NCBI GenBank assembly: GCA_903922465.1
Contig: CAIXTV010000021.1
Location: 91 to 64,090 of the forward strand
DNA length: 64,000 bases
Direction of reading: 5' to 3'
Source: an uncultured bacterium
Lineage (GTDB): Bacteria; Bacteroidota; Bacteroidia; Bacteroidales; CAIXTV01
Shown: in pieces, positions 1,024-19,001 of the stretch
How the letters are laid out: every line of letters begins with the position of its first letter
How positions within the stretch are numbered: position 1 is the first letter of the stretch
Made by a program: the position numbers and the translations under genes
The notes under the pieces: generated by a model
What the model was told of the DNA's origin: nothing
The model's input: the letters and a program-made list of their open reading frames with translations, nothing else
Databases searched by the model: none

Positions 1024-3648
1024 ATGGCAAAAAGCTCAAATACAACTCCAACAGAAACCCCTTTGATGCGGCAACATGCCTCAATTAAAGCGAAATACCC
1101 TGATGCATTACTGCTTTTCAGGGTGGGCGATTTTTATGAAACATTTGGAGAAGACGCTGTAAAAACCTCTGCAATTTTAGGAATAGTGCTAACAAGGCGT
1201 GCAAATGGGGCAGCTACTTTTATCGAATTAGCCGGTTTCCCACATCATGCCATCGACACTTATTTGCCTAAGCTTGTAAAGGCAGGATTAAGGGTGGCAA
1301 TTTGCGATCAACTGGAAGATCCTAAACTCACCAAAACCATTGTAAAAAGAGGAGTTACAGAATTGGTAACTCCAGGTGTATCATATAACGATAAGATACT
1401 AACACATAAGGAAAACAACTTTCTGGCGGCCATTCATTTACAGCCTAAATACACAGGCATTGCTTTTTTAGATATCTCAACAGGAGAATTTTATACTTCA
1501 CAGGGAAGTACTGAATATATTGATAAACTTTTGCAAAGCTTTCGCCCAAGCGAGGTAATTGTTCAGAAAAATAAGCTGAAGGAATTCACAGAAATATTTG
1601 GACAGAGTTATTATGTGAACACCTTTGATGATTGGGTGTTTACGTTTGAGTTTGGAAACGAGACATTACTGAAACATTTCAAAACCATATCCTTAAAAGG
1701 CTTTGGAATAGATGAACTTGAGAATGGCATTATTGCTTGCGGCGCTGCCATGCATTATCTTTCGGAAACCAATCATGATAGAACCATGCACATTAAGAAG
1801 ATTGTGCGCATTCAAGAGGATTTATATGTTTGGTTAGACAGGTTTACGATTCGTAATCTGGAACTTTTGTCTCCAATAAGTGAAAAAGGGAAATGTTTGA
1901 TTGATATCATTGATAGAACTTCCACACCAATGGGCTCACGCCTGCTGAAAAGATGGATAGTACTTCCTTTAAGAGAAAAATCATTGATAGAAGAGCGGCA
2001 TGATATTGTGGATTACTTTTCACAACAACATGAATTGCTGAAAAAACTATCGGAACAGATTCATTTAATTGGAGATATTGAAAGACTTATTTCAAAAGTT
2101 GCTGTTGGGAAGGTAAATCCCCGCGAAGTATTGCAATTGGCAAAGGCCCTTCGCTCAATAGGAGAAGTTAAGGAACTAATTTCAGCAAGCCCTGTGGGTG
2201 CTTTGAAGAAAATTAGTGAACAATTGAATAGTTGTGCTACCATTAACAAAAGGATACAAGAAGAGTTGAATCCCGATGCGCCACTTCTCATTTCAAAAGG
2301 CTATGTAATTGCCGATGGAATTTCAGAACCCCTTGATGATTTACGAAAGCTGGTGTTTTCAGGGAAAGATTACCTCTTGCAAATACAACAAAGAGAAATT
2401 GAGAACACTGGTATCTCCTCTTTGAGAATATCATATAACAATGTGTTCGGTTATTACCTTGAAGTTACCAATACGCACAAAAACAAGGTTCCTGCTGAGT
2501 GGATACGCAAGCAGACATTGGTGAGTTCAGAGCGATATATAACCGAAGAACTGAAAGAATATGAACAAAAGATATTAGGAGGAGAAGAAAAGATCCTGGA
2601 AATCGAACAACAGCTATTCAATTCCTTAGTTATTAGTCTGCTTGACTATATTGATCCGATTCAACTAAATTCTTCTCTTATAGCACGGCTTGATTTACTA
2701 TTATCTTTTGCCGTTATTTCGAAAGAAAACAATTACGTAAAGCCTGCGATGAATGACAGTTTCTCACTTGATATTGTTGATGGTCGCCATCCTGTAATAG
2801 AAAAGAACCTACCTATTGGAGAAGAATATATCACCAATTCAATTTTGTTGAATGACGAGGAACAGCAGATTATCATCTTAACTGGTCCTAATATGTCAGG
2901 GAAGTCTGCCTTATTGCGCCAAACTGCTTTGATTGTGTTGATGGCACAAATGGGTTGTTTTGTTCCTGCAGCAAAGGCAAACATTGGAATTGTGGACAAA
3001 ATTTTCACCCGCGTGGGTGCATCTGATAATATTTCTTCAGGTGAATCTACTTTTATGGTGGAAATGAATGAAACTGCCAGTATCCTAAACAATATATCGA
3101 GCAGAAGTTTGATTTTATTGGATGAAATTGGAAGAGGAACCAGTACTTACGATGGCATTTCGATAGCATGGTCAATTGCTGAGTATATTCATAACCATCC
3201 CCTGTTTCGCCCAAAAGTACTCTTTGCAACACATTATCATGAATTGAATGAAATGACTAAGACTCTCCACAGGATTAAAAACTTTCATGTAACAGTGAAA
3301 GAACTGGGGAACAAGGTGTTGTTTATGCGAAAGATTGCGGAAGGAGGAAGCGAACATAGCTTTGGAATTCATGTTGCAAGAATGGCCGGAATGCCTCAAT
3401 CTGTTCTTGAAAGAGCAGAAGATTTACTTAAAAAACTAGAACAATCGCATAGTAGCGACCAAATTTCTAAAACTGTAAGAAAAGAAATTAAAGATAATTA
3501 TCAACTTAGTTTTATTCAATTGAACGACCCTTTATTGGAAGAAATTCGCGATGATATCCTTCATACTGACATAGATACGCTCACCCCTGTTGAAGCCTTA
3601 ATGAAGTTAAACGAAATAAAAAGGATGCTTAATAAGAATAAAAAATAA
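1024..3648 (+). CDS. mutS: DNA mismatch repair protein MutS
   Basis: 874 aa. The N-terminal mismatch-binding motif is [32 protein letters not shown]. Walker A is GPNMSGKS and Walker B is [16 protein letters not shown]. Confidence 0.97.
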
Positions 3649-3698: not shown

Positions 3699-3771
3699 GC
3701 GGAAGTAGCTCAGTTGGTAGAGCATGACCTTGCCAAGGTCAGGGTCGCGAGTTCGAGTCTCGTCTTCCGCT
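3699..3771 (+). tRNA. tRNA-Gly (anticodon GCC)
   Basis: GCGGAAG...CTTCCGC acceptor stem. D-loop is AGCTCAGTTGGTAGAGC. The anticodon stem-loop TGACC-TTGCCAA-GGTCA gives anticodon GCC. T-arm is GCGAGTTCGAGTCTCGT. Confidence 0.9.
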
Positions 3772-3810
3772 CAAAATTAAACTCTCTTAGGAGAAGTTTT
3801 TTTTCGGTTT

Positions 3811-3895
3811 GCCCTGGTGGTGGAACTGGTAGACACGCAGGACTTAAAATCCTGTTGCCATTGCGGCAGTGCGGGTTCAAGTCCCGCCCGGGGTA
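3811..3895 (+). tRNA. tRNA-Leu (anticodon TAA), class II with long variable arm; CCA is encoded at 3896-3898
   Basis: The anticodon stem-loop GCAGGA-CTTAAAA-TCCTGT gives anticodon TAA. Variable arm is TGCCATTGCGGCAG. T-arm is GCGGG-TTCAAGT-CCCGC. The acceptor GCCCTGG/CCGGGGT has two G-U pairs. Confidence 0.88.
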
Positions 3896-3896
3896 C
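3837..3896 (+). repeat. attL core: 60-bp direct repeat (3-prime part of tRNA-Leu), identical to 57968-58027
   Basis: gcaggacttaaaatcctgttgccattgcggcagtgcgggttcaagtcccgcccggggtac occurs at both positions. I compared them base by base by eye. The flanks diverge immediately outside. Confidence 0.9.
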
Positions 3897-3897
3897 C

Positions 3898-3939
3898 ATC
3901 CCGAAGTAACTGACACACAGGCACTTCGGGATTTTTTTA
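3898..3939 (+). terminator. Rho-independent terminator after tRNA-Leu (island-encoded)
   Basis: A 10-bp stem atcccgaagt / acttcgggat is followed by a T7 run. Confidence 0.7.
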
Positions 3940-4031: not shown

Positions 4032-5447
4032 TTACACCTCCAAATCTTTTTCTAGGTTATTACCTTTTGTTGAAGTACGAACTTCTTTTAAATCATCTAC
4101 CCTCCCAGATTCATTTGAAAACATGCTAAATCTTCTAGCAACTGCCTTTGCAATTTCTTTATCATCGGTATAACTATCATCAATCACCCTATTATCGGAG
4201 TGTCCTGTAATTGATTTTATATTTCCATCTCCCATATATATTTTTAGGTAGGTGATGTATGTTTTTCTTAAGCATTTTAAAGTAAGTTTCCTTCCTGTAC
4301 CTAATTGATCGTAGAAATGGGAGAAGCCACGGCTAAGATTATCTGACATAAACCTTTTCCTTTTTATTTTTATTTCAGGAGCCAATATATAATTATCGGT
4401 ATTCTCGTATTTTTCATAACCCAATTCTTTTAATAATCTCAAAAGTGATTCTGTGACAGGGATATAGATAAATTTCTTCTCATCTTCAGTATTTCGTCTT
4501 TGTATATGATTTACTTTGAAATCCTCTACCTTAATAAATTTATCCCCTTCGCTTTCTATAATTTTATTCCACTTAAGATTTATCAACTCTTCCCTTCTAC
4601 GTCCAGTTTCAAGTGCAAGCCTAATACCATCTTTAAGCCACGGACGATATAAATTTCTTGTTGGCTTTACTCCATTTTCGTATTTCTTTATTCCATTCTC
4701 AGGAGTAATTTGTTTGAGTAAGGCTTCATATTCTGTTTTGGTAATTGCTTCGGGTTTTGGATTTAATTTTTTCCTCTCTACTTCTTCAAACCAATTTATT
4801 ATTGGCACTCTATATTCTTCCCCATACCATTTTAAAATTGAAGAATAAAACCCAAAGATTTTATTAAAGGTTCTATTCGCGTATTCCTTATCTTCTAAAT
4901 AGGTATATATTTCCCCTACTATATCATCATTAAGATCATTGATTGATAATGTCGAAAGATTATGTCCATTACTTTTGAAACACTGAGCTAAAATCTTGCA
5001 TGCTCTTTCAACATCCTTAATGTGTTCTTCGCTTCTAACTTTTATTTTGTGTGCTGGAACCCCTTCGTTCCTTAGCCAGCCAACATACCTTGCTAGTACT
5101 TGTATTAATAATTGTGGCTGATTATTTCCTTTTGTATTTTCAGTAGAATTTGTTTTTTGGTACCTTCCCTCCTTAACCTCTTTTTTAAATTCCAATGCTT
5201 GCTTAATTGCTTCATCAAGGTTCCTCGTTTCTAAATTCTTTGTCCTTCTTTCATTCCTGGTACCTGGGATATGAACTATTACTTTGTAAACATGCTTTTC
5301 TCCATTGGGGCATAACTTTAATGATTTGCCTGTTAGTTTACATGTATCAACCATGTCTCTATTGCACTTATAACAATATACTACCAATCCTTTTATCCTT
5401 TTAGTCGGTGAAATATATAATGGCTTATTTTCCATGGTCTGTATCAT
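4032..5447 (-). CDS. Tyrosine-type site-specific integrase of the island
   Basis: 471 aa. Catalytic-domain motifs are ETGRRREELINLKW (Arg), LRKTYITYL (HxxR-like position) and ITGHSDNRVIDDSYTD (His...Tyr). It lies adjacent to the tRNA attL. Confidence 0.85.
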   Translation of the reverse strand: MIQTMENKPLYISPTKRIKGLVVYCYKCNRDMVDTCKLTGKSLKLCPNGEKHVYKVIVHIPGTRNERRTKNLETRNLDEAIKQALEFKKEVKEGRYQKTNSTENTKGNNQPQLLIQVLARYVGWLRNEGVPAHKIKVRSEEHIKDVERACKILAQCFKSNGHNLSTLSINDLNDDIVGEIYTYLEDKEYANRTFNKIFGFYSSILKWYGEEYRVPIINWFEEVERKKLNPKPEAITKTEYEALLKQITPENGIKKYENGVKPTRNLYRPWLKDGIRLALETGRRREELINLKWNKIIESEGDKFIKVEDFKVNHIQRRNTEDEKKFIYIPVTESLLRLLKELGYEKYENTDNYILAPEIKIKRKRFMSDNLSRGFSHFYDQLGTGRKLTLKCLRKTYITYLKIYMGDGNIKSITGHSDNRVIDDSYTDDKEIAKAVARRFSMFSNESGRVDDLKEVRTSTKGNNLEKDLEV

Positions 5448-6523: not shown

Positions 6524-6605
6524 TTTGGTACATATTATTAATGTACCTCTTGAAACTCACATGATCTTGGAGGTAAATGATAGCAAGATACTTGACATTT
6601 ACAAG

Positions 6606-6915
6606 TATTCTATGCTAAACTTGATTTGCCTTTGGAATACCGTGAATATTCTCGAGGTCCAGAGTTTTATTATAACTTTGGTCAAGCCCCTCTTTGGCGA
6701 GAGGGGCTTTTTTTATAATGTGAACTCTTTACATTGTTTATAAGAACTATTGTGTTTAATGAATGTTTCTCATTTTAAGTATTTTTGTTAGTAATTTCAT
6801 ACCGTCATTTTTTATGTCAAATCCGTCAAAACTTCCACTTAATGACGATTATTCAATATATTTGAATGATATTAAGCTATTAATCCCTGAAAAGTTATTA
6901 AAATATATTCATCCC
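6606..6915 (+). repeat. Diverged direct repeat, copy A (leader plus 5-prime end of a TPR-type gene)
   Basis: It aligns by eye to 13049-13345. Example: ctatgctaaac...ggaata.cgtga.tattct..a.gtccagagtt.tattataa.ttt.gtcaagccc ... tttgtttaatgaatgt.tctc ... tttttatgtcaaatc.gtcaaa ... attcaatatatttgaatgat. Identity is roughly three quarters and was not computed. Confidence 0.75.
6684..6715 (+). terminator. Strong intrinsic terminator-like hairpin inside repeat copy A
   Basis: aagcccctct / agaggggctt is a 10-bp stem followed by T8. No plus-strand ORF lies upstream of it. Confidence 0.55.
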
Positions 6916-7053
6916 CATTTGAGTGAATCATATTTTACGAAAAGTCACAAAATCAACTACATTACTTATTTTTTTTATGGATTTCCAATTTCTGACGATC
7001 GAGCAATTATAATTTGTTCATCAAATAATCCTTTTTCTCCTTGTTTTTTATAA
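6814..7053 (+). pseudogene. Truncated paralogue of the N-terminus of the TPR protein at 13245-14399
   Basis: MSNPSKLPLNDDYSIYLNDIKLLIPEKLLKYIHPHL compares with MSNLSKHPFKDEYSIYLNDNKLFIPEKLLRYIHTQL. It diverges and stops after about 79 aa. Confidence 0.55.
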
Positions 7054-7310: not shown

Positions 7311-7886
7311 ATGATTTATTTTGTCAGACATGGTCAAACAGATTGGAATGTGGAACAGAAGACACAAGGGCATACAGATATCCCATTAAACGCCGACGGG
7401 ATATCACAAGCCGAAACCATTGCAAAAAGTATTTTAAATTTAAATATAAATAGAATTATTTCTTCAGATTTGTTGCGTGCCCGCGAAACAGCTGAAATTA
7501 TAAACCAATCAATAGGAGTTGATATCTCATTTGATCAACGATTACGAGAAATTAATTACGGTGATTTAGAGGGAATTCCAAGGACAGAACTTACTCCAAA
7601 TATTTGGGATGTTTTTAATGATACTCCAGAAAAACTAAATGCTGAACCGATGTCAAGTGTTTTTGAAAGAATAAAGAGTTTTTTTGATGAGTTAAATCAA
7701 CACCAAGATAATATTTTAATTGTTACTCATGGTGGTGCATTACGTATTATTATGCATTATGCAGAAAGTCGTGACTCTTATGATAAAGAAAAATATTCAA
7801 ATTCTCATCAAAATTCTAAAATAAATAATGCCTCAATATTTCAGTGGAATAAAGAGCAAACAGCAATACAACCTGTTTTTTTGTGA
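7311..7886 (+). CDS. Histidine phosphatase family protein (phosphoglycerate-mutase-like)
   Basis: IYFVRHGQTDWN (RHG motif) and IVTHGGALR (second catalytic His). Confidence 0.85.
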   Translation: MIYFVRHGQTDWNVEQKTQGHTDIPLNADGISQAETIAKSILNLNINRIISSDLLRARETAEIINQSIGVDISFDQRLREINYGDLEGIPRTELTPNIWDVFNDTPEKLNAEPMSSVFERIKSFFDELNQHQDNILIVTHGGALRIIMHYAESRDSYDKEKYSNSHQNSKINNASIFQWNKEQTAIQPVFL

Positions 7887-7968
7887 TTTAATTAGTTAGT
7901 CAGTCATGTAAATATTTGAATGAGCATTGCATTGAGTATAAAATAGATAAAGCATTTTAAGGAATAAT

Positions 7969-9420
7969 ATGACTGAAATAACACCTAATATATTATTAAT
8001 AGGATGCGGAGCCCACGCAAAACGAGTTTATTTGCCAGGGCTAAAAGCAACTGAGAGTAAGTTTGGAACATTACTGAAGGCAGTTGTTGAATTAGCGGAA
8101 AAAGAATCAGATACCAATGCATTTCTTTCTAATTTTTATCCTTCTTTTCGAGGAATATATATTGTTCCTTTTTATCAGCAATATTCCCACTCCCTTCCTT
8201 TATACGTAGAACAGCTATTAAATAAAACTGTTATAGAGCTAAATATCAACAGTGTTATAATAGCTACAGATCCTCTTAATCATATGCAATATGCTTTATG
8301 GGCGCAAAAAATGAGTTTGCATATTTTGATGGACAAACCGATTTCAACGTATGAAAATATTTCAAACTCCATTGAACAAACCAAGCAACTTAAAAGTGAT
8401 TTTGGACAACTCATGGAAAAATACTCTACAGAAAAAGCTTTTATTATCAATGTCCAAAGAAGATTTTTACCGCAATTTGAAATTATTCAATCTAAAGTGA
8501 ATGAAATTGCTAAGAAATATGGTATTCCCGTAACTTCAATGCAAAGCACACATAGTGATGGACAATGGCGTTTACCGAAAGAAGGGTTGGAGATTAAATA
8601 TCACTCTAATCTCGGCTGGGGGAAAATTTCTCATAGTGGGTATCATTTTATTGATATGGCAGGTAAGATAGTTAAAGACTCTTTTAAAGAATCTGGGAAA
8701 ATAATTGACGAATTATCAGTTTATGCCCAATTTATACGACAACAAGGTATTTTGAAACAACAATCGCGACAAGATATGATACGTATATTTGGACAAGAAT
8801 ATCAAGAATTGGTTTCACAAAGTGACAGAGAGCTAGCTCATTTGTATAAGATACATAATGAGGCTGAGGTTGATGCAACAGCTATAATTAATCTTTCGCA
8901 TGAAGGGATTCCGGTTACAAATATCACATTGAATTTAATGCATAATGGTTTTTCGCGGCGTGCTTGGATGTTGCCAAATAATGATTTATATAAAGGAAAT
9001 GGTCGGATTAGGCACGAACATCATAATATTCAACAAGGCCCCCTTCAAAACATTCAAATTCATTCCTATCAATCAAATGATAATCATGATTTCAACACTG
9101 AATCTGATTTTTCAGTTGGAGGAAACAATCATTATGATATTCATATATATAAAAATGTAGGTATTATAGGTGGTACACTTCTAGAAATTATTACAGCGAA
9201 AGATGTTGCAGATCAATACGGTCTTGATAAAACGAAAGTAATGAATGAATTGGCACGTCATGCGGCAATTAATGAATTTTTAGAGGTTATTATTGGGATA
9301 AGAAAAGGAAATAATACAAAGGCAAATTTAGCTGATCACGCTTTATCGGTACAGCTGATGTCAATGATTTATGAGGCTGGAATTACTAATTCAAATGTAA
9401 TTCAACCAGTTAAAATTTAA
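7969..9420 (+). CDS. Gfo/Idh/MocA-like NAD(P)-binding oxidoreductase with a long divergent C-terminal domain
   Basis: N-terminal Rossmann motif ILLIGCGAHAKRVYLPGL. VIIATDPLNHMQYALWAQKMSLHILMDKPIS matches the family pattern V.I.TP...H...a..al.aGkhVl.EKP. Confidence 0.6.
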   Translation: MTEITPNILLIGCGAHAKRVYLPGLKATESKFGTLLKAVVELAEKESDTNAFLSNFYPSFRGIYIVPFYQQYSHSLPLYVEQLLNKTVIELNINSVIIATDPLNHMQYALWAQKMSLHILMDKPISTYENISNSIEQTKQLKSDFGQLMEKYSTEKAFIINVQRRFLPQFEIIQSKVNEIAKKYGIPVTSMQSTHSDGQWRLPKEGLEIKYHSNLGWGKISHSGYHFIDMAGKIVKDSFKESGKIIDELSVYAQFIRQQGILKQQSRQDMIRIFGQEYQELVSQSDRELAHLYKIHNEAEVDATAIINLSHEGIPVTNITLNLMHNGFSRRAWMLPNNDLYKGNGRIRHEHHNIQQGPLQNIQIHSYQSNDNHDFNTESDFSVGGNNHYDIHIYKNVGIIGGTLLEIITAKDVADQYGLDKTKVMNELARHAAINEFLEVIIGIRKGNNTKANLADHALSVQLMSMIYEAGITNSNVIQPVKI

Positions 9421-9430
9421 GGAATAGAAT

Positions 9431-10285
9431 ATGGAAAATTCAAATAAACCAAATTCTTATCAAATCGAAGACCCTATAAACAAGGGAGAAGTTATTGTAA
9501 CTTGGATTATGACCCATGCATGTCAAGAAAATTGTGGCTATTGTATTAGTCCAACTAAAACTGATGAACTTTCAACAGAAATTGAGCATTTTACTATTCA
9601 AAATAAACTTATCAAAGATGGACTGACAAAAATGAGATACATTGGAGGAGAACCACTCATAATCAAACATTTTCCAAAATTAATAGCAAGTGCTTATGAT
9701 AGCGGTGTTAATACACGATTGAGCACGAATGGTATTCTTCTTGTGGCTAATAAATTTGATAAGATTAAACCATTTATCAATTCTATTGCTTTGCCATTTG
9801 AATCTCTAAATGATGAGATTAATACACAAATAAGAGGTAATAGATTACATCGACGCATTATATCATCACGAATTGATATGATACAAGACGCTGGAAATAT
9901 TGGTATATTAATTAACACTTGTGTCCATAAAGAAAATATTGATGAACTTGAGGCATTAGGTGGATTTCTTAGTGAAAAAAAAGTAAATCATTGGAAATTA
10001 AGACGATTTAATTCTTCAAGCGGTCGTGGTGCTATACCTAATAAAGATAGATTTGATATTACAGATGAAGCATTTTTTCAAAAAGTAGATTTATTAAAAA
10101 GGACTTATCCTGATTTGAAAATCGATGGAAGATTGCCATCAAAGTTAGAAACACGATTGATGGTTTCTCCACAAGGATTGCTATATAGAATGGTTGGATC
10201 TGACGAAGAAAACGTTCATTATGGAAAAGTAACAGATCGAAAAATAAATGTAGGGATTATATCTGTAAGAGATCGTTGTGATTAA
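9431..10285 (+). CDS. Radical SAM enzyme, viperin/MoaA-like (single 4Fe-4S cluster)
   Basis: The CX3CX2C motif is THACQENCGYC. It is followed by MRYIGGEPLI, TRLSTNGILL, SIALPFESLNDEINTQIRGN, ILINTCVHKENIDE and VNHWKLRRFN. Viperin blocks as I recall them occur in the same order: CNYKCGFC, INFSGGEPFL, VSIVSNGSLI, LAISCDSFDEEVNVLIGRG, FKINSVINRFNVEED, PVRWKVFQCL. There is no C-terminal Cys cluster. Confidence 0.65.
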   Translation: MENSNKPNSYQIEDPINKGEVIVTWIMTHACQENCGYCISPTKTDELSTEIEHFTIQNKLIKDGLTKMRYIGGEPLIIKHFPKLIASAYDSGVNTRLSTNGILLVANKFDKIKPFINSIALPFESLNDEINTQIRGNRLHRRIISSRIDMIQDAGNIGILINTCVHKENIDELEALGGFLSEKKVNHWKLRRFNSSSGRGAIPNKDRFDITDEAFFQKVDLLKRTYPDLKIDGRLPSKLETRLMVSPQGLLYRMVGSDEENVHYGKVTDRKINVGIISVRDRCD

Positions 10286-10993
10286 GTGCAAAATAAAATG
10301 GATATTAAAAATTCTAATACATGTAAGTATTATCTCCACATTGAAGGAATGGATTTAGCTGGGAAATCAACAGTATCTAAAACATTTGCTCAAACAAGTG
10401 AAATAAAATGGATTATCAATGATAAAAGATTAACGCAAGACAATCCGATTTATGATTTTGCTATAGGGCTTTCAAAAAAAGGCGGATTCGACAGTGAAAC
10501 TTTAGGGTACATGTATCTAGCTGCGTTGACACAAGATATAATCAACTTTAAATTAGATGCTAACATTATTCAAGATTCGACTCTTTTATTACGTTCTCTT
10601 AATTATTATAAAAATGTGAATCTAAACAATGAATTAGCTCAAGCCTTTTCTAAACTTATACAGCAACACCCAACACCAAATAAATCTTTCTATCTAACGG
10701 CTGATATTTGTTCGCGACGCCAACGCTTAGCACAAAGAATAGAAATAGAACCTGAAAAATTAACCTCAATGGATCTATTAATTCAGAATGATCCTAACAG
10801 ATTTATGCAGATTGATGAATCTCTTCAAAATATTTCTGTTAATATTTTTAATTCAGAGGTCATTGATACATCAAAAATGAGTATTATGGAAGTAGTTAAA
10901 TGTATACAATTGGGTTGTTCTGCTTCGATACAAAGAATTGTATTAGGCCAAGGTATTACGAACCGGAGGGGTGATGCAAATGGAAGAAAGTAA
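10286..10993 (+). CDS. Thymidylate-kinase / deoxynucleoside-kinase-like P-loop nucleotide kinase
   Basis: The P-loop HIEGMDLAGKST resembles Tmk IEGxxGxGK(S/T)T. A GTG start abuts the rSAM stop, with an alternative ATG at 10298. The 3-prime end overlaps the next gene by 23 nt. Confidence 0.6.
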   Translation: MQNKMDIKNSNTCKYYLHIEGMDLAGKSTVSKTFAQTSEIKWIINDKRLTQDNPIYDFAIGLSKKGGFDSETLGYMYLAALTQDIINFKLDANIIQDSTLLLRSLNYYKNVNLNNELAQAFSKLIQQHPTPNKSFYLTADICSRRQRLAQRIEIEPEKLTSMDLLIQNDPNRFMQIDESLQNISVNIFNSEVIDTSKMSIMEVVKCIQLGCSASIQRIVLGQGITNRRGDANGRK

Positions 10994-11639
10994 TTGGAAT
11001 GAATTATATGCTAAATACATACAAGCTGAATTTAAAAGCTGGGATGAGTATTTTTCTATAAAAATGAAATTAAAAAAAAGATTTCTCAATTTGATTGTTA
11101 AGCACTCAACACCTAATAAGCCCGTATTAGAATGTGGGGCTGGAACTGGTAAATTTTCTGTATATCTTGCTTCGCTAGGTTTCAATACTTACGCTATAGA
11201 TTTAGAACGTGAAATGGTTGAACAAGCAAAACAATTATCAGACCTAGTTTGCCACCAAAACCCGGTAAAAGTTTTACAAGGGGATATTAGCTCTATTCCA
11301 TTTCATAATAAATTTTTTGCAGTATCCCATAGCAGTGGAGTTTTAGAACATTTCAGTGATTCAAAAATCATAGAACTTATTAATGAGCAGTTGCGTGTAT
11401 CGGACACGATTGTATTTAGTGTCCCTTCGCGTTATTTTGATAAAAGAATGCAAGGTAATGAACGTTTTTTGACAAAACAAGAATGGAGAAATATCATTTC
11501 AAACAGTAATGCCAAAATCATCAATGAAACGGGATATCATTATAAAACGCTAAAATATCGAATGTATGATACAATTAAAAATCCAAAACAAATTTTTAAA
11601 CCTATCGCACTGTTTGCGTTTGTTTTAAAGGAGAAATAA
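10971..11639 (+). CDS. Class I SAM-dependent methyltransferase
   Basis: Motif I is VLECGAGTGKFSVYLA. Post-I acidic residue is in AIDLEREMV. GVLEHFSD is typical of the Methyltransf_11/25 type. Confidence 0.8.
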   Translation: MMQMEESNWNELYAKYIQAEFKSWDEYFSIKMKLKKRFLNLIVKHSTPNKPVLECGAGTGKFSVYLASLGFNTYAIDLEREMVEQAKQLSDLVCHQNPVKVLQGDISSIPFHNKFFAVSHSSGVLEHFSDSKIIELINEQLRVSDTIVFSVPSRYFDKRMQGNERFLTKQEWRNIISNSNAKIINETGYHYKTLKYRMYDTIKNPKQIFKPIALFAFVLKEK

Positions 11640-11640
11640 T

Positions 11641-12189
11641 ATGATATATCTAGTACGTCATGGACAAACCGATTGGAATTCAGAAGGAAAGAATCAAGGT
11701 CAAACCGATATTGAGCTTAATCCAGAAGGGATTATACAGGCTGAAATCCTTAAAAAAGAGCTTAAAGATATCGATTTTGATATCGTTTTTTCCAGTCCTT
11801 TAAAACGCGCTTTAAAAACCGCACAAATTATTCATCAGGGCTCTATTATTACTGATAATCGTTTAATGGAAAGATGTAATGGAGAATTAGAAGGTAAATA
11901 TAAAGAGTATCAAGTAGTAGATTTTACAGATCCTAAGGAGACTAGGTTTAATATTGAAGCACTACCTATTTTTAGAAAAAGAATAGTAGATTTTTGGGAT
12001 GATGTATTAAAAAATCATGGTGATAAAAATGTATTAGTTGTTACTCATGCGGGTGTAGGGATATATAGCCAATGTTATTTTAAGGGTGAGCCTCAAAATG
12101 GTGATTATAAACAATATGTGATGAAAAATTGCGATATCATTAAGATAGATACCAGCAGGATTGTATCTTGCTGTAGAACAGGAAAATAA
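11641..12189 (+). CDS. Histidine phosphatase family protein (second copy)
   Basis: IYLVRHGQTDWN and VVTHAGVG. It starts 1 nt after the methyltransferase stop. Confidence 0.85.
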   Translation: MIYLVRHGQTDWNSEGKNQGQTDIELNPEGIIQAEILKKELKDIDFDIVFSSPLKRALKTAQIIHQGSIITDNRLMERCNGELEGKYKEYQVVDFTDPKETRFNIEALPIFRKRIVDFWDDVLKNHGDKNVLVVTHAGVGIYSQCYFKGEPQNGDYKQYVMKNCDIIKIDTSRIVSCCRTGK

Positions 12190-12223: not shown

Positions 12224-12772
12224 TTAAGATCTATCTTTCTGTATAGTTAATATATGTTCAATATGGGGTTGTAATATCTTTAATTTTTCTTTAATAAAGG
12301 TTGGATATGCTTCGTATTCTTGTAATTTATCAATGGGAAGCCATTCTAATACTTCTTTAATTCCATGTGTATAACTATCGCTGTTAAGTTGCTGTGTTCC
12401 GCGTGATTTCATTAAAAAATAAAAAGTAATTTCATGGCATGATAAACCCTTTAGTAGGCCATCTTCTCGTTTAAAAAAGTTCTCTTGTATAAAAGCAAGG
12501 CGATCTATTTCATAAGCGGTACCTGTTTCCTCTAACACTTCACGCAACACGGCTTGCTCAGCTGTCTCGCCTAAATGAATCCCCCCTCCAATTGAATAAT
12601 AATAATTTTCAGATTCATTTGTTGCAAACAGTATGCAATCATTTTCTATAATGATACCTGCTGCTCTTAATCTAAAACGGTTATTATCTTTGTCTTGGAA
12701 ACAACAATCAGGCGTATGCATGATAATTTCATTAGTTAGTTTCATTATAAAATGATAGGTAATTTTATTCAC
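12224..12772 (-). CDS. Nudix hydrolase
   Basis: Complete Nudix box GGGIHLGETAEQAVLREVLEETG. It is convergent with the rSAM operon. Confidence 0.85.
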   Translation of the reverse strand: MNKITYHFIMKLTNEIIMHTPDCCFQDKDNNRFRLRAAGIIIENDCILFATNESENYYYSIGGGIHLGETAEQAVLREVLEETGTAYEIDRLAFIQENFFKREDGLLKGLSCHEITFYFLMKSRGTQQLNSDSYTHGIKEVLEWLPIDKLQEYEAYPTFIKEKLKILQPHIEHILTIQKDRS

Positions 12773-13048
12773 AAATGTACAAAAATATCTTCAGTTGGCA
12801 CACATACGCATAAAAATCCATCCAATTAAAATAAACCCGAACCAATAGCGATCAAAGCAAAATATTTAATTACAAATTTTATATATCACTAACCCTCTGC
12901 TGTTTATATGCCATAAAACCTCAGTGCTTCTTAACTCACCGTTTCAGGTACAGCCAAACTTTTCGTCAAGCACTTTGACAGGAGCAGAGTAACCGAAATG
13001 ATCCTTTGGGAGTGAAATGCTTAAAATAGATTACTTAATATTTTTATG

Positions 13049-13345
13049 TATACTATGCTAAACTTTATTTACACTTGGAATAGCGTGATTATTCTTGATG
13101 TCCAGAGTTATATTATAATTTTAGTCAAGCCCTTATCGTCAAATAGGAACTTTTTTTATAAGAGACCTCTTTACTTTTTTTTAAAGATCTGTTTTGTTTA
13201 ATGAATGTATCTCTTTTTTAGTATTTTTGTTATGCAATTTTTTTATGTCAAATCTGTCAAAGCACCCATTTAAAGACGAATATTCAATATATTTGAATGA
13301 TAATAAACTTTTTATACCAGAAAAGTTATTAAGATATATTCATAC
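13049..13345 (+). repeat. Diverged direct repeat, copy B (leader plus 5-prime end of the intact TPR gene)
   Basis: See copy A (6606-6915). Confidence 0.75.
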
Positions 13346-14399
13346 ACAATTGAAGTTTATTCTTATTGAAAAATCAAATAAGAAATCATGGGATGCAATC
13401 AGTAATTACCTTACAGGTTATTTTAATAAGGATTTTAAAGAAAATCATTTTGACGTCTTTCAAATTTTGTTTTCTTCTGGCATTGGCATAAGTGCAGCTA
13501 ATATTGAAAGAGCTATAAGAGGCAAAAAAGGAGTTCAGAAAGTAAAAGTAAAATACGAATTAATAGATTTCTTGTGCTATGTTACTTGGGGTAAATCATT
13601 GATAGATAAATTATTTGATAGTAAAGAAAATTGGAATACTAAAATAATTCATGATGTTATTATTCCAGATTATGCATTAGATGAATTGAATAAGGTTAAA
13701 TATAAGGCACAGGACTTTTATAAAAACAGGTTAGAGGTTAATCCAAATAAATCTACCTTACATAATAATTACGCAAAATTACTTTATTCAAAATTTAATG
13801 ATATTAAAGAAGCTGAAAAACATTTTAATTTAGCAATTGAATTAAACCCTCAAAACTATGCGGCTCATTATAACTATGCGGTTTTCTTAAAAAATAAGAT
13901 GGCTGATTATGATGGAGCTAAGAAACACTACGAAATGGCTTTAGAAATTAATCCGTATAATGCGAGTATACATAATAACTATGCAAGTCTTCTCATAGAT
14001 TTTTTCAACGATGTGGATAAGGCTAAGATACATTACGAAAAAGCCTTAGCCAGCAATCCGTTATACTTTTTATATAATTTAAATTATGCTATCTTGCTTT
14101 CAGATTATCTTAATGAAAAGAAATTGGCAATTGTTTATTTTAAAAAGACCTTAGATATTGATCCTGAAAATTGTAATGCCCATCATCATTATGCAAATTT
14201 TCTTGCAAATAAACTAAACGATATGGGGGAAGCTAATAAACATTATAAAAGGGCTTTAGACATTAATCCTGAAAATATTACGGTTCACAAGAATTATGCG
14301 ATTTTTCTTACTGACAAACTGAATGATCCTAAGGAAGCGGATTTCCACAACAAGGAAGCACTCAGATTAATCAAAAACAGAATTAAGAAAACATCTTGA
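13245..14399 (+). CDS. TPR-repeat protein with a unique ~190-aa N-terminal domain
   Basis: About seven 34-aa repeats of the form NP.N...H.NYA.FL......D..A..HY..AL.INP. The ORF track starts at a TTG at 13194. ATG 13245 (MSNLSKHPF) is the likelier start. Confidence 0.8.
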   Translation: MSNLSKHPFKDEYSIYLNDNKLFIPEKLLRYIHTQLKFILIEKSNKKSWDAISNYLTGYFNKDFKENHFDVFQILFSSGIGISAANIERAIRGKKGVQKVKVKYELIDFLCYVTWGKSLIDKLFDSKENWNTKIIHDVIIPDYALDELNKVKYKAQDFYKNRLEVNPNKSTLHNNYAKLLYSKFNDIKEAEKHFNLAIELNPQNYAAHYNYAVFLKNKMADYDGAKKHYEMALEINPYNASIHNNYASLLIDFFNDVDKAKIHYEKALASNPLYFLYNLNYAILLSDYLNEKKLAIVYFKKTLDIDPENCNAHHHYANFLANKLNDMGEANKHYKRALDINPENITVHKNYAIFLTDKLNDPKEADFHNKEALRLIKNRIKKTS

Positions 14400-14750: not shown

Positions 14751-16130
14751 ATGAAACTATTTGATCTTTTATATGAAAAGGGATTTCCTAAACTCACATT
14801 CAAAATTCTCTTAAAATTAAAAGTTGGAGATTATTTCGTAATTGCTCCACCCAATTCACATTCGTTCATAATCAAAAATAATGGTTTTGTTTTTAAAAAA
14901 CAATTTCGTTCAGATGAATTCTTTTTTTTATCTTCATTTGATTTACATGAAATTGAAATGATGCACTTCATTACAGTTGCAACAATAAACAGTCAGGCTT
15001 ATATTTTATCAGAAAACTATTTTATTAAAGAATCTATTTCAACCTATCTCGATATCGCGACAAACCCAACTAAATATCAAGACACTTTTAAAGTGTTTGA
15101 TACTTATTCCCTTCCACATGTTATTGAAAGTATTGGATACCTTAATCAAAATTATGCATACGGAAAATTAAATTCAATCAGAGAATTTCTTTCTGCAAAG
15201 AGCAATGACTATTCTCTTATAGACTTCATTTGGCAAAATATTTTCACTACCAACATCACAGATTATGATGCTGCTGAAATTCTTATGCAGAATCATAAAT
15301 TCAATATTCCAAATTCTGTAAGCATTATTATTCCATGCTTTGAATCTAACGACACAATTTCTAATACAGTTGAATCGGCCTTATTAGCATTATCCCTTCT
15401 TCCTCAATCATCTTTCAAAGAAATAATTGTTGTTGATGATTCAAGAACTCTCAATGTAAAATTCAAACAAAAGGAAATCAAGATAATTTCTTCTGATTTT
15501 AAGTTGCATTGTGGGGGAGCAAGAAATGTAGGAATGTCGGTAGCAAAAGGTGAAAATATTTTTTTAATTGACTCTGACACCTATATTGCCCAAAATTATT
15601 TGATAAATCATATCCTCCGACATAACTTTTTCCCAAACTTTATTTCGGTATCTATGCGAGAACAAATAAAAAATATCTCTATCCCAAAAGTAGAGCCTAA
15701 AATTAATTCAGACTCAAGGGTTGAAAAAACGTACAGCACAGAATGGAAAACATTGAACAGTATTTCTGAATCAACAACTGTTATGCCATTAAGTGAAACT
15801 AATAAATTCAAACACTTTGGTTTTGGGAAAAAACTTGGACCAACTGATTTACCTTTTATGGTTAAAGGAAATAATGCTTCATTTTCACGAAAGTCAATTG
15901 GTAATCTTTCATTCTGCAATAAATATGAAGGGTGGGGACCCGAAGATGTTTCTTTTGCAGCAAATCTTATTTCAAAAGGCTTTTTTGTATTACCGATTTT
16001 GTCAACAGGTGTATTTCATGTTGAACATTCGCCTCGTTCAGGAAGTTATGAACAAAAGGAAAAAGAATTGAAATTTAACTTAAATGTTCATGATTCAATT
16101 CTAAATAGTCACCCATACGAAACATGGTAA
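14751..16130 (+). CDS. Family 2 glycosyltransferase with an unknown ~190-aa N-terminal extension
   Basis: GT-A motifs VSIIIPCFESNDTISNTVESAL, EIIVVDDSR, GGARNVGM and IFLIDSDT (DxD). Confidence 0.75.
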   Translation: MKLFDLLYEKGFPKLTFKILLKLKVGDYFVIAPPNSHSFIIKNNGFVFKKQFRSDEFFFLSSFDLHEIEMMHFITVATINSQAYILSENYFIKESISTYLDIATNPTKYQDTFKVFDTYSLPHVIESIGYLNQNYAYGKLNSIREFLSAKSNDYSLIDFIWQNIFTTNITDYDAAEILMQNHKFNIPNSVSIIIPCFESNDTISNTVESALLALSLLPQSSFKEIIVVDDSRTLNVKFKQKEIKIISSDFKLHCGGARNVGMSVAKGENIFLIDSDTYIAQNYLINHILRHNFFPNFISVSMREQIKNISIPKVEPKINSDSRVEKTYSTEWKTLNSISESTTVMPLSETNKFKHFGFGKKLGPTDLPFMVKGNNASFSRKSIGNLSFCNKYEGWGPEDVSFAANLISKGFFVLPILSTGVFHVEHSPRSGSYEQKEKELKFNLNVHDSILNSHPYETW

Positions 16131-17257
16131 TGCAAACAAAAAATATTGACTTTGCATTTACTGACGGTTGGCATCCAACGGTTAATCCTTCCTCTCGAAT
16201 GCCTATTTATTATTTACGGCACAAGCAATTATTTCCGGGACACCCAATAATTCTAAATGAATTTCCAAGAACTAAAGGAGGTTCAACGTTTAGGTTTATA
16301 AGATTTCAAGAACCAACCTCACTTCAAAACATTATTGTAAAAGCTCAAAATACATTATTCGAGTTTATGCCTTGGTGGTTACCTTCCACATTATCAGATA
16401 GTTTTCTTTTTAAAATTTACGATAATATTCTAAAAAGTGATTCTGGAATAACATCATCTGAAAGACTTTGCATTGATGAATTTTACAGTGAATTAAAGGT
16501 AAAAGTATCTTCTGAATTATCAATTGGAGAATTGTTGAACTCAATAAATTTTGACAGATATAAAATCATTTTACCTAATTTGCCTGAAATCAATTGTATA
16601 AGTTTTTCAAAAAGTGTTTTCAAAAATATTTTTCAAGACATACTATCAATTAATCAAGAGAAGTTTTTTTATATTTTAAATCAACTTTGCAAAAGGCAAG
16701 AAATCACCTATTTGACGAAAGTTGCATTTTGCAACGACACTGATTATAATATATACAGAATTAGTTGGGTAGTGCCTGAAAGGCATTTTCACAAAATTAA
16801 GATTGATGTAAAGACGGGTGTAAATATTGGTAGTAGAGAAACCTATTCTTATGAAAGTTTTATCTCTGACATTGAATATGGACGTATTGTTTTAAGTTCA
16901 AAAATTTCATGCATAGCTGAATCACTTGCCTCACTAAGTGGTAAATTCTTTTTCCATTTTGGTAATACATATAATCATTTTGCAGAAATAGCAGCAATTT
17001 TTTCAGATAGCAGAGATTATAATTCACAAACAAAGTTTGTAAATTATTTTAATGATTATGAAGACACATGGAATTATGCTTACTTAAGATTTTCTGATGA
17101 TTATCCAATTCATTTATTTGACCTATTACCGTTGAATGACAACACAGTATTTCAGAAAATATATTCAATTGTGAATAATAGCTTTGAAACCAAATCTCCG
17201 TTTTGCATCCCAGCTACAATTAACTTGGCAGAATCAATCAACGCAGTAAATATCTAA
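16124..17257 (+). CDS. Hypothetical protein (no recognisable motif)
   Basis: 377-aa ORF. It overlaps the GT2 gene by 7 nt and abuts the next gene, so it is part of the operon. Confidence 0.55.
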   Translation: MVMQTKNIDFAFTDGWHPTVNPSSRMPIYYLRHKQLFPGHPIILNEFPRTKGGSTFRFIRFQEPTSLQNIIVKAQNTLFEFMPWWLPSTLSDSFLFKIYDNILKSDSGITSSERLCIDEFYSELKVKVSSELSIGELLNSINFDRYKIILPNLPEINCISFSKSVFKNIFQDILSINQEKFFYILNQLCKRQEITYLTKVAFCNDTDYNIYRISWVVPERHFHKIKIDVKTGVNIGSRETYSYESFISDIEYGRIVLSSKISCIAESLASLSGKFFFHFGNTYNHFAEIAAIFSDSRDYNSQTKFVNYFNDYEDTWNYAYLRFSDDYPIHLFDLLPLNDNTVFQKIYSIVNNSFETKSPFCIPATINLAESINAVNI

Positions 17258-17914
17258 ATGATACAGCAGAAACGACCATATTTGATTGAAGGATTAGATT
17301 GCTCTGGCAAAAAATCTGTTGCTCAACTTGTAAAAGCACAACTTGAAAATGAGTTTCATGTGCCAGTTAAATTAGTTGTTGGCTCATTTGTAAAATCTCC
17401 AATAAAGACTTTTGACAGAATTATTTCAAATCCAAGTAGGTTTTCAAAAAACAGTAGAATAGTTAAAAATCTAAAACAAATTATTTATACAATTGCACCA
17501 GTTATTGATTTCTATTTCTACATACCAAGTAAAAATAAAATTACAATCAAAATCAGTTCACATTTACGTGCTGAAGCCAAAGCTCTAATAGACAAAGATT
17601 TATTTATGATAAAATACTTTAAGAAGTTCAGAAATGTTTCAGTTAAATATCAGGGAGCAGTACTTCTTACATCATCTTTTGAAACAAGAATTTTAAGACA
17701 CAGGGCTGATGTAGGTTCAGATAAAACTAAAAAGGATGAAACAAAAAGATTTTATCAAAACAATCAGCAATTATTTCAAGAGTGGAACAATGCTTTGACA
17801 GATTTAATGAAACATGAAATTAGTTCTGTGAAAATTATCGAGAATGATAATATAAATTTAGAATATATTGCGGATGAAATAATAAACCACATTAAAAGTG
17901 TATACGGACAATGA
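17258..17914 (+). CDS. Thymidylate-kinase-like P-loop kinase (second copy in the island)
   Basis: P-loop YLIEGLDCSGKKS. It has similar size and layout to 10286-10993. Confidence 0.5.
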   Translation: MIQQKRPYLIEGLDCSGKKSVAQLVKAQLENEFHVPVKLVVGSFVKSPIKTFDRIISNPSRFSKNSRIVKNLKQIIYTIAPVIDFYFYIPSKNKITIKISSHLRAEAKALIDKDLFMIKYFKKFRNVSVKYQGAVLLTSSFETRILRHRADVGSDKTKKDETKRFYQNNQQLFQEWNNALTDLMKHEISSVKIIENDNINLEYIADEIINHIKSVYGQ

Positions 17915-18990
17915 AAAAATTTATTTGGCATTTCTACTATTCAAAAAGATTCAGTTTCTATCCGCCGGATTATTATACTATTGGCTTAGGTGGTAGTGAA
18001 TCTGTACTTGTTCTCCTCACTAAATACCTTGCTTCACTTAACCAAGAAGTTCACGTGTTTAATGCTTGTTTTAAACCTGGTATTTATGATAATGTTCATT
18101 GGCATTTACTAACTGATATTAATACGTCGCAAATTCCTGATATTTTTGTTGCAGTTAGATTTGAAGATTCGGTTTTAAAGAATTGTAATGCTAAAGTTAA
18201 CTTATTTTGGATGCTTGATAACAGAGTTGCGGGAGCGTTGAAATTTAAGAGTCTCAATTTGCCAAATTCAAAAATTATTGTTGCATCTGATGCAATGACA
18301 TCATTACTACTTCAAGAAAATATCCCAAGTGATTATCTTATAAAATTGTTTCATCCGATTGAAAACAATATTAAACAATATCAAACACAAACAAATCGAA
18401 AATTAATTTGTCTTTATTCATCAATGCCAACAAGAGGGCTAGATGTAGCATTGGATTGCTGGGTATCTATCCAAAGAGTAGTAAAAGATGCTGAATTATG
18501 GATTACAAACGGTTATGTTCCTTGGGGATTTACAACTGAAGAAGCTGAAGATAAATATAGCCCTTATTTAATTCGTATATCTAAAATGCAAACTGAAGGA
18601 CTATCAATAAAATATTTGGGAGTACTCGCAAGAAGTGACTTCGAAAATTTACTTAGTGAAATTGCAATTCTATTTTATCCTTCCCGTTTTCCTGAAATGT
18701 TTTGTCTCATAGCTGCTGAATGTTCAATGTATGGAATTCCAATTATCACAAGCGACATATTCGCAATGCAAGAGAGAGTTGTAAATAATAAAACTGGATA
18801 TTTAATCAAAGGGGATATTGATCATCTGGAAACTCAAAATGAATTTATTTATAAAACGATTTCCCTTCTTCGTAACATTGACCTACGTGAAAATATGGGT
18901 AATAATTCGAAAGACTTAGCTAAAAATTTAGCAGGCAAAATCATTGCATCAAAATGGATAGACTTTGCAAAAAAAATAATATACAATTAA
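17911..18990 (+). CDS. GT-B fold glycosyltransferase (family 4/1-like)
   Basis: The C-terminal donor-binding region is PSRFPEMFCLIAAECSMYGIPIITSDIFAMQERVVNNKTGYLI (E-x7-E type). An ATGA overlap links it to the upstream gene. Confidence 0.7.
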   Translation: MKKFIWHFYYSKRFSFYPPDYYTIGLGGSESVLVLLTKYLASLNQEVHVFNACFKPGIYDNVHWHLLTDINTSQIPDIFVAVRFEDSVLKNCNAKVNLFWMLDNRVAGALKFKSLNLPNSKIIVASDAMTSLLLQENIPSDYLIKLFHPIENNIKQYQTQTNRKLICLYSSMPTRGLDVALDCWVSIQRVVKDAELWITNGYVPWGFTTEEAEDKYSPYLIRISKMQTEGLSIKYLGVLARSDFENLLSEIAILFYPSRFPEMFCLIAAECSMYGIPIITSDIFAMQERVVNNKTGYLIKGDIDHLETQNEFIYKTISLLRNIDLRENMGNNSKDLAKNLAGKIIASKWIDFAKKIIYN

Positions 18991-19001
18991 ATTTAATATT
19001 T

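Follow-up and report, generated by a model that had tools for sequence, protein, structure and literature searches.

A viperin-like radical SAM enzyme in a candidate nucleotide-tailoring operon of an uncultured Bacteroidales bacterium

We have analysed a stretch of DNA of 64,000 nucleotides (nt), hereafter the window, from an uncultured bacterium of the Bacteroidales lineage CAIXTV01 (GenBank assembly GCA_903922465.1, contig CAIXTV010000021.1, forward-strand positions 91 to 64,090), and in particular an operon in it that encodes a viperin-like radical S-adenosylmethionine (SAM) enzyme, abbreviated rSAM below. Two open reading frames (ORFs) follow one another on the forward strand, at 9431-10285 (284 amino acids, aa) and 10286-10993 (235 aa), and the original prediction, made from the letters of the DNA, was that this rSAM and the kinase beside it preserve the logic of vertebrate viperin (RSAD2) and CMPK2. 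The operon is formed by 7311-12189 together with a convergent Nudix gene ending at 12772, and the rSAM-kinase pair is one junction inside it.

Results

Gene content of the operon

Upstream of the pair lie a histidine phosphatase (phosphatase A; 7311-7886, +; His_Phos_1 with an RHG motif, Pfam E 1e-46) and a 483-aa NAD(P) oxidoreductase of the Gfo/Idh/MocA type with a large family-specific C-terminal half (7969-9420, +; Pfam GFO_IDH_MocA). Downstream follow a class I SAM-dependent methyltransferase (10971-11639, +; Pfam Methyltransf_25/11/31), whose likely start is the ATG at 10980 behind a GGAGG and with which the kinase ORF overlaps, a second histidine phosphatase (phosphatase B; 11641-12189, +; His_Phos_1 with RHG, Pfam E 5e-41) and, convergent with the operon, the Nudix hydrolase (12224-12772, -; Pfam NUDIX E 3e-15). 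Judged by their motifs the accessory enzymes look catalytically competent, with RHG, a Nudix box (GGGIHLGETAEQAVLREVLEETG in the translation of 12224-12772), ExGxGxG and DKP.

The oxidoreductase scores 27.4 bits with PF01408, above the gathering threshold (GA) of 24, and has a GxGxxA Rossmann start (G12 and G14 invariant), an invariant DKP motif of the EKP type (D122-K123-P124) and many other invariant residues. Single-sequence searches of the PDB with the oxidoreductase and with the kinase returned noise only, and profiles and structure prediction were then used; the oxidoreductase family profile gave weak matches, to Gfo/Idh/MocA structures only. Alpha-ribazole phosphate phosphatase, which has a nucleotide-like substrate, is the best match of both histidine phosphatases, in each case below cutoff (for phosphatase A the NCBIfam family is alpha-ribazole phosphatase CobC, at 127 bits against 163). 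These CobC-like matches suggested a role in anaerobic benzimidazole (Bza) or cobamide synthesis, which we rejected given that BzaF-type rSAMs are ThiC-like and that the phosphatases lie below cutoff.

The radical SAM enzyme

The product of 9431-10285 (+) carries the cluster motif C31-x3-C35-x2-C38 and a GGE at 72-74, the three cysteines and the G72-G73-E74 triplet being conserved without exception among 30 family members. It has five cysteines in all, the two outside the motif being C164 and C283, and therefore, as had been predicted, it does not have the second cluster found in MoaA. Pfam sees a generic Radical_SAM domain only. The best NCBIfam family is the “viperin family antiviral radical SAM protein” (NF038283), whose cutoff of 180 bits the rSAM misses with a score of 86; PqqE (57 bits) and MoaA (53 bits) are the runners-up, and TIGR04278 is absent from the best 25 of the 53 NCBIfam families reported. 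The two PADLOC models for prokaryotic viperins (pVips) give 102 and 93 bits, the higher score belonging to “viperins associated with kinases”.

A profile built from the 30 family members finds mouse viperin first in the PDB (61 bits, E 1e-15), together with fungal and cnidarian viperin-like enzymes at 44-56 bits, MoaA at 40, SuiB at 36, BlsE at 35 and SkfB at 31. Aligned by hhalign with nine vertebrate viperins, the family gives a probability of 98.4% and an E value of 1e-14 at 23% identity over 200 columns, which run from 19 to 221 of the window rSAM and from 72 to 283 of mouse viperin. The AlphaFold model (predicted local distance difference test score, pLDDT, 87.5) superposes on viperin structures with template-modelling (TM) scores of 0.75-0.83 over Foldseek alignments of about 270-277 columns; SkfB is the first Foldseek match (E 9.3e-14), through the core only, and the viperins come next at about 1e-13 with higher TM-scores. 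The characterised family nearest to the rSAM is viperin, clearly above MoaA and the other rSAM families.

Two other identities were considered on the strength of individual matches. A SPASM-type peptide maturase, suggested by SkfB at the top of the Foldseek results, is set aside since neither a SPASM domain nor a precursor peptide is present and the profile scores favour viperin. MoaA (GTP 3',8-cyclase) shares a related rSAM core that acts on nucleoside triphosphates (NTPs) and is the second-best nucleotide-acting match, but a molybdopterin role was rejected in view of the missing C-terminal cluster cysteines, a TIGR02666 score of 53 bits against 284 and the lack of MoaC or any molybdopterin context.

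The original prediction listed seven blocks of the rSAM, each paired with a block of viperin. All seven are present in the translation, and hhalign pairs six of them exactly as proposed (CQENCGYC/CNYKCGFC, RYIGGEPL/INFSGGEPF, TRLSTNG/VSIVSNG, IALPFES...IRG/LAISCDS...GRG, ILINTCVHKEN/FKINSVINRFN and NHWKLRRF/VRWKVFQC), while the seventh (LMVSPQGLLYRMV with SYLILDEYMRF) is left unaligned by both hhalign and hmmsearch. The likeness exceeds the generic rSAM core: the beta-6 motif (HWKLR/RWKVF; H187-W188-K189 against R245-W246-K247) and the SG..A...RF.I..EF segment after it align as well. In viperin a C-terminal extension, made of the beta-8 loop and the tail, closes over the triphosphate and the base, and Tyr302 is catalytic. 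The last 60 or so residues of the rSAM (222-284) are aligned to viperin by neither hmmsearch nor hhalign, and it has a tail that falls short of that of viperin by about 14 aa. Y302 would correspond to R242, a placement that depends on the unaligned seventh block.

We also followed N77, H79, K120, K220, N222, R245 and K247 of mouse viperin, which we take to be residues of its NTP and cytidine triphosphate (CTP) pocket, presumably as defined in the work on 6Q2P. In the hhalign mapping K120 (K67), H201 (H140), N222 (N162), W246 (W188) and K247 (K189) are kept, and N77 (S/T24), H79 (I26), K220 (L160) and R245 (H187) are changed. Further basic residues are invariant in the rSAM family (R69, R96, R135, H166, R191, R199 and R207), and an invariant set of Arg, Lys and His of this kind would fit an anionic substrate. 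Two family traits lack a viperin counterpart, namely an N-terminal KKYxIEDxEH motif (residues 8-17; Y10 and E13 invariant), which is peculiar to the family and has low pLDDT in the model, and the invariance of C164 and of the penultimate C283.

About 115 close homologues share 54-87% identity with the rSAM and none is informatively named. Clustering at 50% identity reduces the family to one full-length representative (variant P0022, 491 bits), with two fragments also scoring high; the next full-length relatives stand at 218, 166 and 165 bits and lead into a continuum of 260-290-aa proteins. All of the 100 nearest relatives match the viperin model and one of them reaches approximately the curated cutoff. 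With a hidden Markov model of this cloud of relatives the rSAM family scores 217-242 bits, the cloud members 200-324 and vertebrate viperins 133-144, and distance summaries are consistent with these values. Judged by the scores of the relatives with both models, the rSAM forms part of a broad prokaryotic radiation of rSAM enzymes that are related to viperin but not covered by the curated viperin family. It is not itself a member of that family, falling below the cutoff, differing in the C-terminal extension and keeping the pocket residues in part, yet as far as sequence comparison can tell it groups with no other named family, and a clustering elsewhere, which would have spoken against the original prediction, was not seen. 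Several giant proteins (P0208, P0254, P0256, P0217 and P0264; 900-1324 aa) give three or four separate matches to the viperin-like rSAM profile, and appear from these matches to be fusions of several rSAM domains.

The kinase and its junction

Directly after the rSAM stop codon (TAA, 10283-10285) comes a GTG at 10286, which agrees with the proposal that the kinase start abuts the stop; the likely true start, however, is the ATG at 10298, and the real gap is probably 12 nt, because kinase homologues start at the corresponding codon (MDIKN...). A spacing of 12 nt is still a tight operon junction.

Assignment of this gene (10286-10993, +) to the thymidylate kinase family held up, largely through its structure. 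Its match to Pfam Thymidylate_kin (PF02223) is 22.4 bits, below the GA of 27, and NCBIfam TIGR00041 gives 22.7 against 83; 27 of 30 kinase family members match Thymidylate_kin weakly (best E 5e-7), and the family profile finds thymidylate kinase (Tmk) in the PDB at E 0.04. The AlphaFold model (pLDDT 91.7) has thymidylate kinases as all of its top 47 Foldseek matches in the PDB, with TM-scores up to 0.76 at 14-17% identity, and the protein as modelled is a P-loop kinase with a very divergent thymidylate kinase fold. The Tmk-type P-loop IEGMDLAGKST that had been noted is present and is invariant as HxEGMDLAGKS across the family. With the Tmk signatures taken to be a DR(Y/F) motif after strand 3 and an Arg-rich LID, the family has an invariant Q96-D97-S98 in place of the former, so that the Asp is kept and the Arg replaced, and a LID-like helix in which R144 is invariant and R147 and R151 nearly so.

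Conservation across loci

We compared about 23 distinct rSAM loci from metagenomes and species-representative genomes (numbered L here). Homologues on genome contigs were recovered, after a single-sequence search had given nothing, by an alignment-based search, a motif-based scan of 185,579 species-representative genomes that yielded just 18 loci. Most of the loci come from metagenome-assembled genomes (MAGs) of uncultured gut Bacilli and Clostridia, and the genome records bear the labels uncultured Clostridia, Bacilli, Mollicutes/Tenericutes and Coprobacillus. One variant, P0030, has index entries in 131 blocks of the sequence collection, and some of its displayed loci are from human-gut metagenome samples.

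Three architectures can be told apart. Architecture A, that of the window, runs phosphatase, oxidoreductase, rSAM, Tmk-like kinase, methyltransferase, phosphatase, and recurs in L011, L018/L039 and L037/L038, the order of the first phosphatase and the oxidoreductase being variable and phosphatase A being divergent in L011. In architecture B (L001-4, L008, L009, L012-14, L016, L032) phosphatase B, methyltransferase and oxidoreductase are divergent from the rSAM, which is followed by Nudix and phosphatase A where the flank shows, and there is no kinase. Architecture C (L005, L010, L015, L017, L019-25, L030/31) comprises Nudix, methyltransferase, phosphatase and rSAM, to which a second methyltransferase and HelD may each be added, then an acetate-kinase homologue and the oxidoreductase, in several orders. 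Phosphatase A homologues were found in A and B.

Wherever enough flank is available the methyltransferase and phosphatase B adjoin the rSAM cluster, phosphatase B being found in all 23 loci, and a homologue of the roughly 480-aa oxidoreductase lies within about 7 kb of the rSAM in 22 of the 23. A Nudix gene is present in about 12 of the 23 (fused to the oxidoreductase in L005), and frequently there is also HelD, a further phosphatase or a further methyltransferase. The Tmk-like kinase, by comparison, is confined to architecture A and absent from most loci of the rSAM family; adjacency of rSAM and kinase recurs in the loci of that architecture named above, and equal-sized longest contigs of homologue pairs suggest at least 10 further contigs with both genes. 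The closest outgroup rSAM (P0117) stands alone amid housekeeping genes, without any of the partners, so the operon partnership is specific to this rSAM clade.

In seven distinct loci of architecture C the gene immediately upstream of the oxidoreductase belongs to the acetate/propionate-kinase family (358-394 bits, cutoff 293). This gene may be a housekeeping enzyme, since it passes the genuine AckA cutoff, and we consider it either a true component, perhaps acting as a surrogate nucleoside diphosphate (NDP) kinase, or retained synteny with a housekeeping ackA. The acetate-kinase and oxidoreductase pair stays together while its position relative to the rSAM changes (L005, L010, L017, L019, L021, L023, L025, L030). 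HelD, an RNA-polymerase recycling motor, adjoins the rSAM cluster in five distinct rearranged loci (433 bits, cutoff 419; L005, L010, L015, L021, L025, L030/L031). One locus of architecture A (L037, 13039-16196) carries, immediately after the operon, an insertion with genes for a GHMP-kinase-like protein, a Ham1p-like non-canonical NTP pyrophosphatase and a PALP enzyme; the otherwise syntenic L038/L039 lack this insertion.

The oxidoreductase and kinase without the radical SAM enzyme

Distant homologues of the kinase (35-46% identity) occur in three-gene operons with an oxidoreductase homologue and a thiamine pyrophosphate (TPP) enzyme (L026-L029, L036). The oxidoreductase homologue is full-length, with 33-39% identity and E values of about 1e-100 in L026-L029, and the TPP enzyme (460-490 aa), which resembles the alpha subunit of indolepyruvate:ferredoxin oxidoreductase (IOR), takes the place of the rSAM. 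The L028/L029 operon is divergent from an RtcR-CARF sigma-54 activator (497 bits) and has downstream of it genes for a Mokosh MkoA-like helicase (322 bits) and for a PLD nuclease; no PADLOC model matched the three proteins of the operon in L028. In L026 the operon is accompanied by a second kinase paralogue and by an unannotated protein of 480 aa, and an unannotated 480-aa protein is also present in L036.

The pair thus recurs without a viperin-like rSAM, and for that reason we regard oxidoreductase plus kinase as a module that combines with different radical or iron-sulphur (FeS) enzymes; the conserved partner of the kinase is the oxidoreductase, not the rSAM. Another kinase homologue (44% identity, L034/L035) is found in an operon with a deaminase-like amidohydrolase, a 371-aa rSAM, an MTAP-like nucleoside phosphorylase, a 374-aa rSAM/SPASM protein and an ATP-binding cassette (ABC) importer, which appears to be a different nucleoside-related pathway.

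Discussion

The idea that the window repeats the viperin-CMPK2 logic survives in part. There is a viperin-related rSAM, there is a Tmk-fold kinase that could raise substrate supply, the two are coupled in one operon and the pairing recurs. To say that the same logic is conserved is nevertheless too simple, because the kinase is optional and missing from most loci, so that the pair is not a conserved unit, because the constant partners of the rSAM are others and that of the kinase is the oxidoreductase, and because the rSAM fails the viperin threshold with pocket residues replaced. Compared with RSAD2-CMPK2, the rSAM has 23% identity to vertebrate viperins over 200 columns, and the kinase, 14-17% identical to Tmk structures, has QDS where DR(Y/F) is expected. 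Acetate kinases can convert NDPs to NTPs, so a substrate-feeding role could be common to both kinase types, which would partly rescue the viperin-CMPK2 logic.

We favour, with a probability of roughly 40%, the reading that the operon encodes a multi-step nucleotide-tailoring pathway, yielding a nucleotide analogue, built on a viperin-type radical step. We arrive at it because the partners are nucleotide-related (the Tmk fold, Nudix and the nucleotide-phosphatase-like phosphatases) and are joined by a sugar-type oxidoreductase, for which a dehydrated intermediate could be a substrate, one or two methyltransferases and HelD. Also in its favour are the relation of the rSAM to viperin beyond the core, the persistence of the linkage through rearranged loci, the company of nucleoside-related neighbours that the kinase keeps, the defence context of the island in the window and the RtcR-CARF and Mokosh-like setting of the oxidoreductase-TPP-kinase module. 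The product would most likely be a polymerase-directed nucleotide or nucleoside analogue for antiviral or antagonistic defence.

The substrate, step order, product and biological role set out here are what we infer from the homologies, folds, catalytic motifs, operon structure and conserved linkage. The Tmk-fold kinase, or elsewhere perhaps the acetate-kinase-family enzyme, would raise the phosphorylation state of a nucleotide substrate. The viperin-like rSAM would then, via a 5'-deoxyadenosyl radical, abstract a ribose hydrogen and eliminate the neighbouring hydroxyl in a viperin-type dehydration, giving a didehydro-deoxy (ddh) or keto-deoxy nucleotide. The Gfo/Idh/MocA enzyme might oxidise or reduce a sugar carbon, in the manner of the reductase that follows AprD4 or of Cns1 in cordycepin synthesis, and the methyltransferase might methylate the product. 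Finally, the Nudix enzyme and the histidine phosphatases could set the final phosphorylation, from NTP to nucleoside monophosphate (NMP) to nucleoside, and/or limit self-poisoning. AprD4/AprD3 and cordycepin Cns1-Cns3 achieve a net deoxygenation of a sugar by dehydration and subsequent NAD(P)H reduction, and the cordycepin route combines a kinase, a phosphohydrolase and an oxidoreductase. The likeness is an analogy of logic only, with no demonstrated homology and with different substrates (an aminoglycoside and 3'-AMP). The linkage of HelD fits a product that stalls RNA polymerase, and HelD may be a self-resistance factor against it.

Several observations weigh against a nucleotide-tailoring pathway of this kind. 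The rSAM misses the viperin cutoff by a wide score (86 against 180 bits), its C-terminal 60 residues are unalignable and end in a shorter tail, and four of the presumed CTP contacts are changed. Enzymes of the Gfo/Idh/MocA type act on C-OH and C=O groups; the enol-ether C=C that a ddh-nucleotide offers is not a group on which they act, which makes the chemistry after the radical step speculative. The gut-MAG loci sit among housekeeping genes (dnaG-rpoD, ribosomal protein genes, leuS, acc genes, polC) and not in defence islands, and both the acetate-kinase and the HelD neighbours could be housekeeping genes kept by synteny. No relatives of the rSAM family were found on viral contigs, and we have therefore dropped a phage origin; nor is any transporter conserved in the cluster across the loci, which weakens the idea of a secreted nucleoside.

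That chromosomal setting is what gives some weight to a non-immune explanation, in which small-genome gut Firmicutes would use the operon for housekeeping or specialised metabolism, for example to make or salvage, starting from an NTP, a cofactor precursor, a modified nucleoside or a compound resembling a pterin or deazapurine, by way of a radical step, Nudix removal of pyrophosphate, dephosphorylation, redox and methylation. The passage from NTP through Nudix to phosphatase is the logic of folate pterin synthesis, the P0030 variant is widely indexed and reaches human-gut samples, and the operon contains no toxin, effector or sensor gene and has no viral relatives. Set against this are a patchy distribution, if one judges by the 18 loci of the motif-based scan, the position of the window operon on a repeat-bracketed, integrase-bounded and defence-rich island, the linkage with HelD and the fact that the nearest characterised homologue is antiviral; moreover, we know of no cofactor pathway with this gene set from the literature searched. 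On balance we think such a metabolic role somewhat unlikely. Alternatively, the rSAM might be a plain prokaryotic viperin that makes a ddh-NTP, fed by the Tmk-like kinase as by CMPK2, with the other genes unrelated. Viperin as best-matching family, the kinase-associated PADLOC model as the best of its kind, the Tmk fold, the tight junction and the defence island would all suit this, as would the report of a nucleotide kinase next to 12% of bacterial viperins (bioRxiv 10.1101/2023.09.13.557418). It becomes improbable once one considers that most loci lack the kinase, whose conserved partner is the oxidoreductase even where there is no rSAM, that methyltransferase, phosphatase and oxidoreductase are essentially constant and travel with the rSAM through rearrangements, and that the score lies far under the viperin cutoff with altered pocket residues.

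A further possibility is an RNA end-healing or modification system after the logic of Pnkp/Hen1 or RtcAB, with the kinase, phosphatases, methyltransferase and Nudix enzyme acting on RNA ends and the rSAM and oxidoreductase modifying a nucleoside within RNA. A set of kinase, phosphatase, methyltransferase and Nudix does resemble RNA repair sets, HelD is linked, and the related oxidoreductase-TPP-kinase operon is divergent from RtcR-CARF, a regulator that normally controls rtcBA. We find it very improbable all the same, given that there is no ligase or RNA-binding domain, that the kinase is optional and has a Tmk rather than a Pnk fold, that the phosphatases resemble small-molecule phosphatases and that the methyltransferase has no Hen1 signature.

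Returning to nucleotide tailoring, the operon might by analogy work like a viperin system extended by tailoring enzymes. With pVips (NF038283; PADLOC pVip) the rSAM shares a single cluster, a length of about 280 aa and a partial TIM barrel, the best HMM and structural matches, the motifs K-x-(N/R)-x-x-GGEP, x-I-N-(S/T) and (R/H)-W-K beyond the core, an occasional kinase linkage and, for the window copy, a place in a defence island. It differs from them in the low score, the replaced pocket equivalents, the unalignable C-terminus and the family-specific KKYxIEDxEH motif and penultimate Cys. Neither RSAD2-CMPK2 nor the pVip systems described have anything that corresponds to the constant partners (methyltransferase, histidine phosphatase and Gfo/Idh/MocA oxidoreductase, in some loci also Nudix), and in the literature searched we came upon no description of a cluster that joins an rSAM to Nudix, histidine phosphatase, MocA or methyltransferase. 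Going by its description, the nearest published parallel is Ophion, an anti-jumbo-phage system of Gammaproteobacteria that is likewise multi-gene with a viperin-related rSAM, OpnA, but whose partners (PHP and phosphoribosyltransferase, PRTase) and hosts differ (bioRxiv 10.1101/2025.09.30.679545).

More tentatively, we speculate that these loci represent a new pathway family, mainly of uncultured gut Firmicutes MAGs, in which a viperin-derived radical dehydratase, a Gfo/Idh/MocA enzyme, an O- or N-methyltransferase and phosphatases would make a new nucleoside or nucleotide (e.g., a 3'-deoxy or methylated ddh-type chain terminator). Tmk-like and acetate-kinase-like enzymes would be interchangeable feeders, HelD would provide self-resistance by rescuing the RNA polymerase of the producer, and the oxidoreductase and kinase would be a portable module that also serves with an IOR-like TPP enzyme in defence islands; we regard this wider proposal as doubtful in its entirety. 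The exchange of rSAM for an IOR-like TPP enzyme beside the same pair would point to a modular system outside PADLOC-DB v2.0.0 (2023).

Viperins are the textbook case of immunity common to bacteria and animals, and viperin-type enzymes are to our knowledge the only natural source of ddh-nucleotide chain terminators. If the nucleotide-tailoring reading is true, the addition of redox, methylation and dephosphorylation to a viperin-like radical enzyme would widen natural nucleotide-analogue chemistry, provide new scaffolds for antivirals or antibiotics along with new radical SAM reactions, and assign a definite role to genes found repeatedly in metagenomes from the human gut and from other guts. 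The linkage of HelD would represent a testable route to producer tolerance of polymerase-directed analogues.

Genomic setting in the window

The operon is located just inside a low-G+C region that starts, with an integrase, past mutS (1024-3648) and two tRNA genes; beyond 4 kb the G+C content is down to about 0.30, from about 0.40 before. The tRNAs, tRNA-Gly(GCC) at 3699-3772 and tRNA-Leu(TAA) at 3811-3898 (+; ARAGORN, Rfam), mark a probable island attachment region, and the tyrosine integrase (4032-5447, -; Pfam Phage_integrase E 5e-8) stands at the island edge. Two copies of a direct repeat of about 330 bp (repeat families D2, D3 and D4), 78-85% identical and spaced by about 6440 bp, bracket the whole operon. 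The left copy (6589-6922) holds a strong terminator-like hairpin at 6684-6709, and the right copy (13032-13353) overlaps the 5' end of a gene for a TPR protein (13194-14399). This arrangement gives the operon the look of a cassette whose insertion duplicated the target region. A scan for promoters and terminators did no better than on shuffled sequence.

The same integrase-bounded island contains a dense defence island at 30490-50320, made up of a GmrSD-like type IV restriction gene (30490-32328), Lamassu (LmuB 32433-34466, LmuA 34963-36204), Qat (QatC 37468-38808, QatA 39645-41525), a Ppl-like ATPase (41749-44436) and a type I restriction-modification (R-M) system, HsdS/HsdM/HsdR (44447-50320). 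Between the operon and these systems lies a run of glycosyltransferases (14751-20152, including GT2 at 14751-16130 and GT1 at 17911-18990), and a weak second Nudix-like match (30% identity) was seen at 19047-19412. Within the TPR gene four diverged, tandem-like repeats of 97 nt at 13717-14338, spaced by 105 or 210 nt, are the TPR units as they appear in the DNA.

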